NCBI GenBank assembly: GCA_020058085.1
Contig: JAGVER010000014.1
Location: 33,747 to 97,746, forward strand
Direction: 5' to 3'
Length of the DNA: 64,000 nucleotides
From: Candidatus Omnitrophota bacterium
GTDB lineage: Bacteria > Omnitrophota > Gorgyraeia > Gygaellales > Profunditerraquicolaceae
In this document: positions 38,795 to 64,000 of the stretch, in pieces
Position numbering within the stretch: the stretch's first letter is position 1
How the letters are laid out: each line of letters begins with the position of its first letter
Made by a program: the position numbers and the translations under genes
Notes under the pieces: model-generated
Databases searched by the model: none
What the model was told of the DNA's origin: nothing
What the model saw: only the letters and a program-made list of their open reading frames with translations

Positions 38795-39463
38795 CTAGGA
38801 ACAAAACGGAATGGTTGTTTTGCTTTTGCTCCAGCCCGCGTACGAATGCATACATTCTTGGGCTAATTTTATTTTTCTATCTAAACCAAAACAATTCTCA
38901 TAATAACAGTTTCTAGAAATTTCTTTAGCGGCCATTTTCCCGTATTTCAATACCCACAAATTAGCCCCATTCTTATGTATCTTGCCACGGACTTTTAATA
39001 AATTCTCAGCCACATTGTTTAACCAACTAATAAATTCACTAGATCCGGAATAAATTCTTAAACTCCACTGTTCTCTTTTATTCGAGGGATGAATCCATGC
39101 GCGAATGCAACCATCGCTATCAATTAGCCCTCTTAAAAAATCAACAAAAAATTTACTTGGCACATCTATTTTGCCTAAGGTAAGTGATTTGTTCGGTGTT
39201 AATCCTATTGATAAAAGAAATTCGTAAAAATTCCTATTTCCAATTTGGATATGAAAACATTTTTGTTTTTTACCATTATACTTAACACCGATTTGATTAG
39301 CAATACCAATCACAGTCTTTAGTTCTTGAAGAAAATTTTGATCTTTAGATGTTATATCAATATGCCTACCATCGGTACACAAACAGCCATCTGTCGTAAT
39401 CAACCCCACTAAATACCAAAGATTTGCGCCTACAATTTTTAATTCTTTTCGCTTTTGCGGCAT
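38795..39463 (-). CDS. free-standing double-motif LAGLIDADG homing endonuclease
   Basis: Two LAGLIDADG motifs, WYLVGLITTDGCL and FLRGLIDSDGCI. Start trimmed to MPQKRK (ATG at 39463), because the ORF-track version runs into tRNA-Cys. Flanked within 12 nt by intact tRNA genes. Confidence 0.7.
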   Translation of the reverse strand: MPQKRKELKIVGANLWYLVGLITTDGCLCTDGRHIDITSKDQNFLQELKTVIGIANQIGVKYNGKKQKCFHIQIGNRNFYEFLLSIGLTPNKSLTLGKIDVPSKFFVDFLRGLIDSDGCIRAWIHPSNKREQWSLRIYSGSSEFISWLNNVAENLLKVRGKIHKNGANLWVLKYGKMAAKEISRNCYYENCFGLDRKIKLAQECMHSYAGWSKSKTTIPFCS

Positions 39464-39474
39464 TTTTAATTCTA

Positions 39475-39546
39475 AGGCGACGAGCGGATTCGAACCGCTG
39501 AATAGCTCTTTTGCAGAGAGCTGCCTTACCACTTGGCTACGTCGCC
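39475..39546 (-). tRNA. tRNA-Cys(GCA)
   Basis: Reverse complement GGCGACGTAGCCAAGTGGTAAGGCA-GCTCT-CTGCAAA-AGAGC...GGTTCGAATCC...CGTCGCC. Confidence 0.75.
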
Positions 39547-39552
39547 AAACAT

Positions 39553-40092
39553 CTAAAGAACCTTGTTAACCTCCTTGATTATCGCCTCAATATCAGCCAA
39601 ACACCCCATACCAACGTCTCCACAGGCGAGTTTACCTTCTTGGGGGCCAATAAAAACATAGCCTAACTTTTTAAGTTTAGCAATATTATCCTGAGTAATT
39701 TTATTTTTATACATATTCTCGTTCATAGCCGGAGCGATTAAAACCGGGGCTCTGGTTGCGAGAATAATACAAGTCAATAAATCATCGCAAATTCCGGCGG
39801 CTATCTTAGCAATAATATTTGCTGTTGCTGGCGCAAGCAAAATTAAATCTGCTTTTTTGGCTAAAGATATGTGTTCTATCTCCCAAGTATCCACAAAATC
39901 AAAAAGCCCGCAATAAACCTTATTTCCGGAAAGGTTCTGGAAAACTATCGGCCTAATTAATTCTTCCGATTCTTTGGTCATCACTACAGTTACAGAACCA
40001 ATCTTCTCTTTAATCTGGCGCACGATATCACAAGATTTATAAATGGCGATACTCGCGCTAACCCCCAAAATAATATTCTTCTCTTTAACCAA
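39553..40092 (-). CDS. coaC: phosphopantothenoylcysteine decarboxylase-type flavoprotein (CoaC domain only)
   Basis: 179 aa with IILGVSASIAIYK, typical of the HFCD flavoprotein family. No CoaB domain is fused. Confidence 0.65.
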   Translation of the reverse strand: MVKEKNIILGVSASIAIYKSCDIVRQIKEKIGSVTVVMTKESEELIRPIVFQNLSGNKVYCGLFDFVDTWEIEHISLAKKADLILLAPATANIIAKIAAGICDDLLTCIILATRAPVLIAPAMNENMYKNKITQDNIAKLKKLGYVFIGPQEGKLACGDVGMGCLADIEAIIKEVNKVL

Positions 40093-49172: not shown

Positions 49173-53179
<4,007 letters not shown>

Positions 53180-59357: not shown

Positions 59358-59375
59358 GCCTGGTTGGGAGAGAAG

Positions 59376-59921
59376 ATGAAAGAAAAAGTTAAGATTTTAG
59401 ATAAAGAGGCGGTTGCGCGGGCAATTACACGTATTGCTCACGAAATTCTTGAGAAAAATAAGAGCACAAAAGACCTCTGTCTTATAGGTATAAGAAATCG
59501 CGGGGTATATCTTGCAGAGCGTCTCGCAGATCGCATCAAAAATATTGAAGGCTCTGGCGTTTTAACCGGAGCCCTTGATATAACTTTATACCGTGATGAT
59601 TTAGCTCTTGTTTCAGGTCAACCTTTAGTGCGTAAAACCGAAATAGATTTTGATATCAATGGAAAGAATCTTGTTTTAGTGGACGATGTTTTATATACGG
59701 GGAGAACGATAAGGGCTGCACTCGATGCTTTGATTGATTTTGGCAGGCCGAGATCGATCCAATTAGCAGTTTTAGTGGATCGTGGGCATAGGGAATTGCC
59801 GATTCGTGCAGATTATGCCGGAAAAAATATTCCGACTTCCAAGGATGAATCCGTAGAAGTAAGGTTGGAGGAGACAGAGGGCGTAGACGAAGTGGTAATT
59901 ATCGGTAAAGAACTAAAATGA
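59376..59921 (+). CDS. pyrR: pyrimidine operon regulator / uracil phosphoribosyltransferase PyrR
   Basis: [24 protein letters not shown]... plus the PRPP-binding [12 protein letters not shown]. The start was moved from the ORF-track TTG (59364) to the ATG at 59376, which follows GGGAGAGAAG. Confidence 0.8.
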
Positions 59922-60880
59922 CCTGGATAAGAAAAGATTTACTGGGATTGGAAGAACTAAATAGGGAAGAATTGGAGTTAATTCTCTCTACTGCTGAATC
60001 ATTCAAAGAAGTATCCAGCCGGGAAATAAAAAAAGTTCCTGCGTTGCGTGGTAAGACCGTGGTAAATTTATTTTATGAACCTTCTACGCGCACGCGTGTA
60101 TCCTTTGAAGTGGCCGCTAAAAGGCTTTCTGCTGATGTAATTAATATCGCTACTGAAACCTCCAGTGTTAAAAAAGGAGAGACGCTGATTGATACCGGTA
60201 AAAATATCGAAGCCCTAAAAGCAGATATTATTGTTATGCGTCATAACGCTTCAGGGGCTGCGGCGATGCTTGCCCGTAACTTAAATATTAGTGTGGTTAA
60301 TGCTGGAGATGGTTGGCATGAGCATCCTACGCAGGCACTTTTGGATATATTTACTTTAAAAGAGAAATTAGGCAGAATTGAAGGTTTAAATGTAAGTATT
60401 GTCGGTGACATTGCGCATTCACGGGTAGCGCGTTCAAATATCTGGGGTCTGCTTAAATTAGGTGCTAAAGTAACTCTCTGCGCGCCTAAAATACTCATTC
60501 CTGCGGCAATAGAAGATATGGGCGTAGCCGTAACTAATGATATAGAAGAAGCCTTAGCGAAGGCAGACGCAGTAAATGTTTTGCGTATGCAGTTCGAGCG
60601 AGACGGAGAAACGGCCTTTCCTAGACAGTTGGAATACTTTAAGCAATTTGGCATTACCGCGGAGAGGCTAAAAAAGGCGAAGAAGAATATTATAGTTATG
60701 CATCCTGGGCCGGTTAACCGCGGGATTGAGATATCAAGTGAGGTTGCCGACGGCGCCAATTCGGTGATTTTAGAACAAGTGACTAATGGTATTGCTGTGC
60801 GCATGGCGGTATTATTTTTAGTGGCACAGGCTCAAGACAAATTAGCCAATATTACGAAAGATGAACCCAGCCTTTCCTAA
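59918..60880 (+). CDS. pyrB: aspartate carbamoyltransferase catalytic subunit
   Basis: STRTR and HPTQ motifs. 320 aa. Confidence 0.85.
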
Positions 60881-60882
60881 GG

Positions 60883-62190
60883 GTGGGTATAGGGTATGAA
60901 AGGAAGAGCTGGGTGAAAATACTGATTAAAAATGGGCATGTTATAGACCCGATAAATAATTTAGACGAGGTTAGGGATATTTTAGTTGAGGGTTCTAAGA
61001 TATCTATGGTCGAAAAAAATATTAATGTAGATGCAGATAAAATAATTGAGGCAGAGGGGAAAATTGTCATGCCCGGTTGTGTTGATATGCATGTGCATTT
61101 AAGGGAACCGGGTAGAGAAGATAAAGAGACTATCTGCAGCGCAACTAAAGCCGCGCTACATGGCGGAGTTACTACTCTTTTGGCGATGCCTAATACTGAC
61201 CCGGCAATTGATTCCCTAGAGAATATCAAACTTTTAAAAGATGCGATAGCTAAAAGCGCCAAGGCAAATGTTTTCATTTGCGCAGCTATTACTAAATTCC
61301 GCCAAGGCAAGGAATTGGTTGATGTCGCTGGGCTTAAGCAGGATGGGGCGGTGGCCATCTCTGACGACGGAGCATCGGTAGATTCAGATGAATTAATGTT
61401 AGAGGCCTTACGATCTGCTCAAGAGGCAAAAATTCCGGTTATCTGCCACTCTGAAGATAAGAAATTATCAGATTCAGGGGTAGTAAACTTAGGTTTCACC
61501 TCTACCCGCTTGGGCTTAAAAGGGATATCTAAGGAATCGGAATACAAAAGAGTTGCCCGGGATATCGGATTGGCGGAAAAAACGGGCGCGGCTATACATA
61601 TCGCGCACATAAGCTGTAAAGAGTCGTTAGATATAATCGCCCGCGCCAAGAAAAAAGGAGTTAAGGTAACTTGTGAAACTGCGCCGCACTATTTTACATT
61701 TAATGAAGAGATGGTTCTGGGGTTTGATACAAACTTTAAGATGAATCCTCCTTTGCGTAGCAAGGAAGATGTTGCAGCAATAAAAGAGGGTTTAGCGAAC
61801 GGGATAATTGATGTTATTGCTTCGGATCACGCCCCGCATACGGAGAATGAAAAAGAGATAGAGTTTGAGCGAGCGGAATTCGGAGTAACCGGTTTAGAAA
61901 CAGAGTTAGCGGTTGCGATCACAGAGTTAATCGGAGCTGGTATTTTAAGTTGGAGTAAGCTTATAGAGAAAATGGCAATTAACCCCAGTCGTATCTTAGG
62001 CATAGATAAAGGTGGCTTGGGTATAGGTAAAGACGCGGATATAGCTATAGTTTCTCCGGAAAAAGAATGGATAGCCAAGAAGGAGAATTTTTTATCAAAG
62101 TCCAAGAACTCAAGTTTTATCAACAAGACCCTAAGGGGCTTTGTTGAATATACAATTTGTCAGGGCAAGGTTAATAAATGGAATTCATAG
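60883..62190 (+). CDS. pyrC: dihydroorotase
   Basis: DMHVHLREPG metal-binding motif and the amidohydrolase fold. 435 aa. Confidence 0.8.
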   Translation: MGIGYERKSWVKILIKNGHVIDPINNLDEVRDILVEGSKISMVEKNINVDADKIIEAEGKIVMPGCVDMHVHLREPGREDKETICSATKAALHGGVTTLLAMPNTDPAIDSLENIKLLKDAIAKSAKANVFICAAITKFRQGKELVDVAGLKQDGAVAISDDGASVDSDELMLEALRSAQEAKIPVICHSEDKKLSDSGVVNLGFTSTRLGLKGISKESEYKRVARDIGLAEKTGAAIHIAHISCKESLDIIARAKKKGVKVTCETAPHYFTFNEEMVLGFDTNFKMNPPLRSKEDVAAIKEGLANGIIDVIASDHAPHTENEKEIEFERAEFGVTGLETELAVAITELIGAGILSWSKLIEKMAINPSRILGIDKGGLGIGKDADIAIVSPEKEWIAKKENFLSKSKNSSFINKTLRGFVEYTICQGKVNKWNS

Positions 62191-64000
62191 CTGATTTTCA
62201 TATTCATTCTAAATACTCCCGAGCCACCAGTCGTAATATGGATGTAAAAAACTTAAGCGAGTGGGCTAAGCTTAAGGGTATCACTTTGATGGGCACCGGA
62301 GATTTTACGCATCATTTATGGCTCGAGGAATTGAAAAATAACTTAGAGGATTGCGCCAACGGTTTATATAAATACAACGGCATTAATTTTATTTTGACTG
62401 CGGAGGTAAGCAGTATTTACTCCAAAGGAGGCAAGACCTATAGGATCCATAATCTTATTTTCGCCCCTTCTTTCAAAATTGTAGATCAGATTAATGATAA
62501 GCTTGGCCGTATTGGTAATCTAGCTTCGGACGGTAGGCCGATCCTGGGATTGGATGCTGCAGAGTTGGCGCGCATTGTTTTTGATATTGACGCAAACTGT
62601 ATGATTGTTCCGGCACATTGTCTTTTGCCGGGGACATTTGTACATACGTTAAGGGGAATGAAAACTATAGAGAGTATTTCTAAGAAGGACCACGTTTATA
62701 CTCATAAAATGCGTTTTAAAAAAGTAACTGAGTTATTGCGAAGAGAGTATCGGGGAGATATGCTACATATTAAACCATATTATTTCAGAATGGGAATTAA
62801 GGCAACTCCCGAACACCCATTTTTTATAATCAAGACCCATAAAAATTGTGCTTCTAGAGGCAGTTTTTGCATGTCAAATTGCTCCCATTTGAAAAATAAA
62901 GGCTGTAAACGCAGGTACTTTAATCAATATTATCCAGAGTGGGTCCGGGCAAAAGATATCGCAGTCGGTGATGTAATGGTTTTTCCAAGGTTCAATGATA
63001 AAATCAGAGATAAAGCCGATATAAAAATTAGCGAACTAATACCGGGGAAATTGGTTTTCAATAAAGAAAAAATAGCATATAAAGGAAACAGGGTCAGTTT
63101 TGTAAAGGACAAAATTAAGGTAGGAGCGGAGTTCTGCAGGTTGGCAGGGTATTTTATTTCTGAGGGTTACACCAATAGCAGGGATTGTATTGCTTTTTGT
63201 TTTCTCAAGGATGAAGCTGCCTATATAAACGATACAATATGTTTAATGAATAAAATATTTGGCATTAAATTATCGAAGATACAATCCAAGAAAAATGTAG
63301 ATGGAGTAGAGTTGATATTTTATTCTAAGGTTTTATACAAACTATTTACTAAGCTTTTTTATACTAATAAGATAATTAAGAAGGCGCATTCTAAATCCTT
63401 GCCGAATTGGATGCTAGGATTGCCTATCGCAAAACAGGTAGAAATTATAAAAGGATGGTGGCGTGGAGATAAGGGTTATACCGTGTCGGAAACTTTGATG
63501 AATCAAATTAAGGTTTTATTTTTGAGATTAGGCGCAATTCCGTCTATCGGAGTTGATTCTATAGAAAAGCACAAAATTCGCGGCAAACATTTCATAGGGG
63601 TAAGAGAAATTTTAGCCAAGCATGATATTTTTCAATTTAATAATCTTTCATTTTTTGAAGACAAATTTAATCTGCTTAAAGAAGAAGAATTTAAGAAATT
63701 TAGAACGAAATCAATAAGCAAGCACGGTTGGATGGATGAAAATTATGTGTATTTACCAGTAAGGAATATAGAAAAGGAAAAATATAAAGGTAAAGTTTAT
63801 AATTTAGAAGTAACGGGTGATAATTCTTATGTTTGCGATTTTGCAGTGGTTCATAACTGCTGGACTCCGTGGTTCTCGCTCTTTGGTTCGATGTCCGGGT
63901 TTGACAGGATTGAGGATTGTTTTGAGGAACAGACGCCAAATATTTTCGCCTTGGAGACCGGACTTTCCTCAGATCCCGCAATGAACTGGCGCATAAGCGC
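62178..64000 (+). CDS. endonuclease-Q-like PHP-domain protein (TIGR00375 family), intein-containing, 3'-truncated by window edge
   Basis: Frame-3 ORF from the ATG at 62178. N terminus is MEFIADFHIHSKYSRATSRNMD...GTGDFTHHLW (PHP), with C-extein ...WTPWFSLFGSMSGFD...ETGLSSDPAMNWR. A 413-aa intein interrupts it. Absent from the ORF track because no stop occurs before position 64000. Confidence 0.55.
   Translation, partial: MEFIADFHIHSKYSRATSRNMDVKNLSEWAKLKGITLMGTGDFTHHLWLEELKNNLEDCANGLYKYNGINFILTAEVSSIYSKGGKTYRIHNLIFAPSFKIVDQINDKLGRIGNLASDGRPILGLDAAELARIVFDIDANCMIVPAHCLLPGTFVHTLRGMKTIESISKKDHVYTHKMRFKKVTELLRREYRGDMLHIKPYYFRMGIKATPEHPFFIIKTHKNCASRGSFCMSNCSHLKNKGCKRRYFNQYYPEWVRAKDIAVGDVMVFPRFNDKIRDKADIKISELIPGKLVFNKEKIAYKGNRVSFVKDKIKVGAEFCRLAGYFISEGYTNSRDCIAFCFLKDEAAYINDTICLMNKIFGIKLSKIQSKKNVDGVELIFYSKVLYKLFTKLFYTNKIIKKAHSKSLPNWMLGLPIAKQVEIIKGWWRGDKGYTVSETLMNQIKVLFLRLGAIPSIGVDSIEKHKIRGKHFIGVREILAKHDIFQFNNLSFFEDKFNLLKEEEFKKFRTKSISKHGWMDENYVYLPVRNIEKEKYKGKVYNLEVTGDNSYVCDFAVVHNCWTPWFSLFGSMSGFDRIEDCFEEQTPNIFALETGLSSDPAMNWRIS
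62619..63857 (+). mobile_element. intein with a LAGLIDADG homing-endonuclease domain in the PHP-domain gene
   Basis: Starts CLLPGTFVHTLRGMKTIESI (block A) with TPEH (block B). LAGLIDADG-like LAGYFISEGYT. Ends VYNLEVTGDNSYVCDFAVVHN, followed by Cys+1 (CWTPWF). Confidence 0.75.

Follow-up and report, generated by a model that had tools for sequence, protein, structure and literature searches.

An EndoQ-family gene of a Candidatus Omnitrophota bacterium with a predicted class-1 LAGLIDADG intein directly after a catalytic zinc ligand

Introduction

Endonuclease Q (EndoQ) of Pyrococcus furiosus (Pfu; crystal structures 5zb8, 7k30-7k33), from a family of repair nucleases that cut 5' of deaminated or abasic lesions, is the closest described relative of the gene reported here. 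Its two catalytic Zn2+ ions are bound by His8, His10, Glu76, His84, His139 and Asp193, the H139A substitution nearly abolishes activity, and the residues lining the lesion pocket are His139, Thr142, Glu167-Leu170, Asn191 and Asp193 (PMC5961232). On the intein side, the closest described systems are TliVMA/PhoVMA (7qsu, 7qst), PI-PkoII (2cw7), PI-SceI (1vde) and PI-PfuI (1dq3), class-1 inteins in which the Hint domain is split by a two-motif LAGLIDADG homing endonuclease domain. Proteins of COG category L (acting in replication, recombination and repair) account for 61.5% of the intein-containing proteins of bacteria and 66.9% of those of archaea (PMC4760082). A search of the literature retrieved no paper on an EndoQ intein, and none of relevance on inteins in organisms of the candidate phyla radiation (CPR) or of DPANN. 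Here we analyze 64,000 nucleotides from a Candidatus Omnitrophota bacterium (assembly GCA_020058085.1, contig JAGVER010000014.1, positions 33,747 to 97,746 of the forward strand; hereafter the window), at the end of which an EndoQ-family gene is interrupted by a 413-aa element that is very probably a class-1 intein. An earlier annotation made from the DNA letters alone, referred to below as the sequence-only reading, had proposed both assignments.

Results

Reading frame and identity of the host gene

The frame that starts at 62178 on the forward strand stays open to position 64000, with 607 codons and no stop in the in-frame translation, and the list of open reading frames (ORFs) leaves it out solely because it has no end within the window. 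Cut at CLLPGTF and VVHN, the translation falls into an N-terminal part of 147 aa, an insert of 413 aa and a C-terminal part of 47 aa; the insert has exactly the bounds given by the sequence-only reading, all of whose quoted peptides are found in the frame, and the N-terminus and start codon agree with those of homologues (MEFIADFHIHSKYSRATS). When 5.8 billion proteins were searched with the 607-aa query, an identical full-length protein of 825 aa emerged (P0121), encoded on a 150-kb contig and present in both NCBI and Joint Genome Institute (JGI) data, where JGI names it 'uncharacterized protein (TIGR00375 family)'. The gene was thus unannotated, as had been claimed, only in the ORF track. In P0121 the C-extein is complete at 265 aa, and the spliced protein would count 412 aa.

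The joined N- and C-terminal parts (194 aa) align with the Pfu EndoQ crystal sequences (5zb8, 7k30) at E=5e-28, and the alignment runs unbroken over the junction, where Pfu reads PAH|AFTPW and the window protein PAH|CWTPW. With the spliced form of P0121 the homology becomes end-to-end (residues 5-410 against Pfu residues 5-395, E=7e-58) and covers the same PHP domain, zinc-binding domain and C-terminal domain. Moreover, when the precursor was modelled with AlphaFold2 from an alignment of 79 sequences (mean predicted local distance difference test score 84.5), its extein part superimposed on 5zb8 with a target-normalised template modelling score of 0.85. The Pfu ligands H8, H10, E76, H84, H139 and D193 correspond to H8, H10, E76, H91, H147 and D206 of the spliced protein, Pfu H195 corresponds to H208, and the PHP zinc-ligand positions are invariant or nearly so in 79 homologues. 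In the lesion pocket, Pfu Thr142 has its counterpart in Thr150 of the spliced protein and Pfu E167-L170 in ETGLS, the motifs TPW, E-x-GLS and SNSDAHS being common to both proteins.

The two proteins differ in several respects. Pfu EndoQ is intein-less, as are all of the best 120 homologues listed for it (Thermococcales); the host described here is bacterial and of mesophile type. The separate zinc-binding domain reads C-x2-C...C-x2-C in Pfu and H672-x2-C675...C691-x2-C694 (precursor numbering) in the window protein, the first Pfu cysteine aligning with a histidine; all four positions are conserved among the homologues, and the arrangement is probably a variant zinc site. NCBI names the intein-less relatives 'endonuclease Q family protein'. 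The sequence-only reading had assigned the gene to a TIGR00375/EndoQ-like PHP family: the EndoQ part of this assignment stands, but strict membership of TIGR00375 does not, the spliced extein scoring 198.7 bits and the precursor 243.4 bits against a curated cutoff of 326.6. Judged by these comparisons, the host gene is a family-level homologue of EndoQ and not a TIGR00375 equivalog as defined by that model.

It may be noted that the unspliced precursor outscores the spliced extein on TIGR00375 (243 against 199 bits), and that positions 2-134 of this hidden Markov model match the final ~140 aa of the EndoQ intein (intein aa 272-412; 63435-63857) with 45 bits, the match ending at the junction. 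The TIGR00375 model would appear to include columns of intein origin that stop at the EndoQ-intein junction. MJ0043 of M. jannaschii, a TIGR00375 member, presumably carries the intein that we take to be listed as 'Mja Hyp-1' in InBase, and the two observations just given lend this some indirect support.

Motifs and fold of the intein

The positions of the features are collected in Table 1. The insert carries the whole set of class-1 motifs, from block A with Cys1 to the C-terminal VVHN|C (63846-63860), in which Cys+1 directly follows HN, and 116 of 116 full-length homologues retain in alignment Cys1, T-x-E-H, HN, Cys+1 and both acidic residues of the endonuclease. Block A, the TxxH block, one LAGLIDADG motif and VVHN with Cys+1 had been recognized by the sequence-only reading, which overlooked the second endonuclease motif, GWWRGDKGY. 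Pfam Intein_splicing (PF14890) scores the insert at 43.8 bits against a cutoff of 35.8. In Foldseek comparisons the predicted fold of the insert matches TliVMA (7qsu, E=4e-17), PI-PkoII, PhoVMA, PI-SceI and PI-PfuI, with E-values ranging from 4e-17 to 1e-7, and its central domain matches free LAGLIDADG enzymes such as I-DmoI, as well as I-Tsp061I and the PI-SceI endonuclease domains. The EndoQ intein thus has in common with these described inteins the Hint domain split by a two-motif LAGLIDADG domain, Cys1, TxxH, HN and a +1 nucleophile, and shows weak sequence similarity to PI-PkoII (E=0.002); it differs from them in host protein and insertion site, in an identity of only 11-18%, and in an additional four-cysteine (CCCC/CCHC) insert after block B. 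The GC content of the intein is 33.3%, against 40.5 +/- 2.4% for the window, and is the lowest of all 1239-nt sliding windows in the 64 kb. Overall, we put at about 0.85 the probability that this EndoQ-family gene contains a class-1 LAGLIDADG intein able to splice.

Table 1. Coordinates of the EndoQ-family gene, its intein and further features of the window (precursor residue numbering)
Feature	Position	Strand	Evidence
N-extein, EndoQ-family, aa 1-147, first part of PHP domain	62178..62618	+	Alignment to Pfu EndoQ 5zb8/7k30
Zinc ligands in N-extein: H8; H10; E76; H91; H147	62199-62201; 62205-62207; 62403-62405; 62448-62450; 62616-62618	+	Pfu alignment, ligand list of PMC5961232
Predicted class-1 intein with embedded LAGLIDADG domain, 413 aa (aa 148-560)	62619..63857	+	Pfam, absence in orthologues, fold
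Cys1, block A CLLPGTF (Cys148), predicted first-step nucleophile	62619..62621	+	Cys in 116/116 aligned homologues
Block B T-P-E-H (T210-H213)	62805..62816	+	T-x-E-H in 116/116 homologues
Four-Cys insert C224, C231, C235, C243, putative zinc knuckle	62847..62906	+	Conservation among homologues
LAGLIDADG motif 1 LAGYFISEGY, predicted catalytic Glu329	63141..63170	+	E329, G330 invariant
LAGLIDADG motif 2 KGWWRGDKGY, predicted catalytic Asp431	63450..63479	+	W427, G430, D431, G433 invariant
Blocks F and G (VYNLEVTGDNSYVCDFAVVHN), ending His559-Asn560	63795..63857	+	[VI]HN then C[WM]TPW in all aligned homologues
C-extein, cut by window end: Cys+1 (63858-63860), then WTPWFSLFGSMSGFD...ETGLSSDPAMNWRIS	63858..64000	+	
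pyrC (dihydroorotase), upstream syntenic neighbour of endoQ	60883..62190	+	TIGR00857 412 bits
gyrB, 1245-aa precursor with ~426-aa intein	49442-53176		Pfam Intein_splicing 69.8 bits, aa 450-875
Free-standing LAGLIDADG ORF	38798-39565	-	LAGLIDADG_3 43.9 bits; GC 35.8%

Several observations weigh against this assignment or against the mobility of the element. Block F departs from the canonical consensus (VYNL for VYDL, DNSY for DHNF), a departure conserved throughout the allele family; Pfam LAGLIDADG_3 stays below threshold on the EndoQ intein (14.4 bits, cutoff 22.5), although many homologues carry a precomputed PF14528 match, and the assignment of the endonuclease therefore rests on motifs, homologues and fold; the confidence of the AlphaFold2 model is low exactly at both splice junctions; and the 3' end of endoQ is known at the protein level alone, through P0121, because no downstream DNA was recovered: an exact 48-mer from the window end has no match in JGI metagenome contigs, no contig encoding pyrC or P0121 turned up, and the best species-representative match is 64-76% identical. 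The same list includes the divergence pattern treated under Mobility. The first two of these points, together with the NCBIfam models intein_Nterm (18.1 bits, cutoff 24.5) and intein_Cterm (12.9 bits, cutoff 15.6), which fall just short of threshold for the window copy, would fit an intein that has decayed and no longer splices, or else a domain inserted for good, the gene then being a pseudogene or encoding a fusion protein. We regard this as highly improbable: the frame is open across all 825 codons of P0121, every class-1 splicing residue is present and invariant in the 116 homologues, the exteins are under strong conservation that includes every zinc ligand, and the PHP site would probably not survive a permanent insertion of 413 aa beside one of its metal ligands.

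Insertion site and distribution

The splicing-competent intein that we favor lies directly after His147, the equivalent of the essential zinc ligand His139 of Pfu EndoQ. The sequence-only reading held a DNA-repair nuclease to be an unusual host for a homing intein; on the contrary, such proteins are the main intein hosts (PMC4760082), and the present allele occurs in >120 clusters at 90% identity, from Omnitrophota, CPR bacteria and DPANN-type archaea. Indeed, insertion at active-site residues of replication and repair proteins is the rule for inteins, and a site directly after a catalytic metal ligand is typical.

Comparison with intein-less homologues, which the sequence-only reading had proposed as a check, establishes the site. 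Nearest to the spliced N-terminal part are proteins of Candidatus Omnitrophota that share 82-87% identity with it along 100% of its length; they are insert-free and colinear and read VPAH-[I/C/A/L]-WTPWF at the junction (PAH-[I/A/V/L/C]-WTPW for the intein-less orthologues as a whole). Since the exteins of intein-bearing relatives show similar identities (94% for P0124, 87% for P0126 and 82-86% for the others), presence and absence of the intein are interleaved among close relatives. Among species-representative genomes we found at least 591 EndoQ-like loci and examined the best 80, of which 75 are without the intein and five bear it, one each from Omnitrophota, Parcubacteria, an uncultured archaeon, Woesearchaeota and Micrarchaeia (L001-L005); all five share the site PAH|C...HN|CWTPW. 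In 66 intein-less loci the +1 residue is I (36), A (20), V (5), L (3) or C (2), both cysteine loci belonging to CPR bacteria, and the target site predicted from these 66 loci is ...CCGGCNCAT|NNNTGGACNCCNTGGTT..., an actual intein-less junction (e.g., L006 or L014) reading ...GTTCCGGCNCAT|ATCTGGACNCCNTGGTTC....

The same allele is found in public metagenomes (e.g., P0122-P0240; L001-L005) at the PAH|C...HN|CWTPW site, with a length of ~403-439 aa, the same motifs and 45-83% intein identity, and without any difference in kind; it occurs in Omnitrophota, in Parcubacteria and further members of the CPR, in Woesearchaeota and Micrarchaeia, and on one contig with the label Njordarchaeales. Some of these entries are already labelled as inteins, e.g. 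'PHP family Zn ribbon phosphoesterase/intein/homing endonuclease' at JGI, several homologues are called 'hypothetical protein' by NCBI, and one is named solely 'LAGLIDADG family homing endonuclease'. When 1.84 billion representatives were searched exhaustively with just the intein as query, 4667 matched at E<=1e-3 and 130 at E<=1e-30. The EndoQ allele makes up ~20 of these representatives (>=226 bits, intein start near residue 150); the next scores (<=181 bits) belong to related inteins in radical-SAM/B12 enzymes, DNA and SAM methyltransferases, a pyridine-nucleotide oxidoreductase, an MptE-like protein and glycosyltransferases.

Three side observations concern this distribution. The allele occupies the same site in archaeal metagenome-assembled genomes (L003, L004, L005 and P0158, the last being the 3-kb Njordarchaeales contig), and the exteins of these four are also nearest to bacterial CPR-type EndoQ genes, which suggests that the gene, its intein or the two together moved between domains, mis-binning being also possible. 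One protein of 1033 aa (P0188) contains, besides the PAH|C intein, a second one at ETGLS|C...N|SDPP, within the lesion-pocket motif; the EndoQ family therefore has at least two insertion sites. Finally, nearly all of the best 120 intein-less matches to the N-terminal part (P0001-P0120) are short or 'partial' (<340 aa) and lie at contig ends, a possible reason being that assemblies break where intein-plus and intein-minus strains co-occur.

The four-cysteine module

Directly after block B the intein carries four cysteines spaced C-x6-C-x3-C-x7-C. Among 115 homologues the module reads CCCC in 84 and CCHC, with the third cysteine replaced by histidine, in ~16, and it is deleted as a whole in 11; this all-or-none conservation and the Cys-to-His exchange point to a putative zinc knuckle. 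The insert was also considered as a hallmark exclusive to EndoQ inteins, an idea that was rejected, as some of the related inteins in other hosts have it too. We take its position to be roughly that of the DNA-recognition region of PI-SceI, and by analogy of position it could take part in recognition of the target DNA.

The module also bears on whether the intein acts as a post-translational switch, with active EndoQ set free only when redox or metal conditions allow it, for instance through Cys1/Cys+1 or the four cysteines. An intein placed directly at a zinc ligand should leave the precursor inactive, both nucleophiles are cysteines, the splicing domain contains the conserved CCCC/CCHC module, and conditional splicing has been proposed as a reason for the clustering of inteins in repair proteins (PMC4760082). 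However, orthologues at the 75 intein-less loci among the best 80 of the at least 591 manage without the intein, and a module absent from 11 homologues but present in inteins of unrelated hosts is a better fit to the intein's own DNA binding, so that we consider conditional splicing quite improbable. Slightly less remote, and still unlikely, is a wider proposal in which the CCCC/CCHC module would serve as a zinc-knuckle module for DNA recognition or for metal/redox sensing in an undescribed, large intein lineage that crosses domains among small-celled uncultivated organisms (Omnitrophota, CPR bacteria and DPANN archaea) and gates EndoQ at its metal site.

Mobility

Relative to the window sequence, intein and extein identities co-vary (r=0.88), the intein merely diverging faster; this pattern indicates largely vertical descent, and homing in the lineage may at present have ceased. 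An intein that still splices while its endonuclease no longer homes, handed down by vertical descent as a passenger that the host tolerates near the end of the homing cycle, would account for this correlation and for the many Omnitrophota relatives in which the intein-bearing protein has exactly 825 aa. Against such a loss stand the invariance of both catalytic acids and the surrounding LAGLIDADG motifs in 79-116 homologues, the interleaving of intein-less and intein-bearing orthologues, and the discordant intein and extein similarities across the family; we see it as the less probable case, albeit one with appreciable weight.

The discordance is visible when all 7140 pairs are compared: the correlation between intein and extein identity drops to 0.61, and the inteins are more alike than the exteins in 823 pairs, for example P0126/P0128 (97% vs 79%) and P0214/P0223 (77% vs 52%). 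The reverse is also found, P0210/P0231 sharing 78% of their extein and 44% of their intein residues. The AT-richness of the intein and its uneven presence among close relatives count in favor of mobility too. Discordance and invariant endonuclease residues support what would be continuing horizontal movement within the family, whatever the activity of the window copy; for this copy, we incline slightly toward an endonuclease that is still actively homing.

Genomic neighbourhood and other homing elements of the window

As the sequence-only reading had noticed, the start of endoQ overlaps the pyrC stop codon (TAG, 62188-62190); counted from the ATG, the overlap is 13 nt. The upstream gene is a true dihydroorotase, its TIGR00857 score of 412 bits lying above the cutoff of 279, and pyrC and endoQ are adjacent in 32 of 80 related loci, mostly from Omnitrophota, intein-plus and intein-minus alike; the gene that houses the intein is therefore orthologous and syntenic. 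In the window the genes follow one another as pyrR-pyrB-pyrC-endoQ (59364-62190, then 62178 onward), and this adjacency links a predicted repair nuclease for deaminated bases to a pyrimidine biosynthesis operon.

Both further homing-type elements mentioned by the sequence-only reading, the gyrB intein and a free LAGLIDADG gene, are real. The gyrB intein has the junctions EGDSAGG|CFAGDT...VFVHN|SAKQG, and Pfam finds no LAGLIDADG domain within it; dnaA, dnaN and gyrA lie near gyrB, and these surroundings look like the chromosomal origin region. The free-standing ORF has no NCBIfam match. That the three elements might be related copies was rejected, as BLASTP of the EndoQ intein against all ORFs of the window gave nothing below E=2.7, and hence no significant similarity to the gyrB intein or to the free ORF.

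Discussion

From the sequence motifs, the fold, the colinear orthologues that lack the intein and the signs of mobility seen family-wide, we propose the following scheme. The gene would encode an 825-aa EndoQ-family precursor in which the 413-aa class-1 intein is placed between His147 and the next residue of the PHP active site. We infer that the unspliced precursor would be catalytically incompetent, because 413 residues part the zinc ligand His147 from the lesion-pocket residues that follow it. Excision would take place after translation, by an N-S acyl shift at Cys148, trans-thioesterification to Cys561, and cyclisation of Asn560 followed by an S-N shift, and would give a 412-aa EndoQ reading PAH-C-WTPW. 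The freed intein would be a LAGLIDADG homing endonuclease, whose predicted cut in alleles that lack the intein lies around ...CCGGCNCAT|NNNTGGACNCCNTGGTT..., and recombinational repair would then copy the intein in, with conversion of the +1 codon to Cys.

The current understanding of inteins and of EndoQ is unchanged by this finding. It matters mainly for annotation: a single EndoQ-family precursor of 825 aa, intein included, should be called here, rather than a fragment or a 'hypothetical protein'. The intein with its predicted target site might find limited application, either for splicing or for its new LAGLIDADG specificity. With it, EndoQ joins the repair enzymes whose metal-binding active site is the target of an intein, and the same allele is documented in bacteria and archaea from similar habitats.

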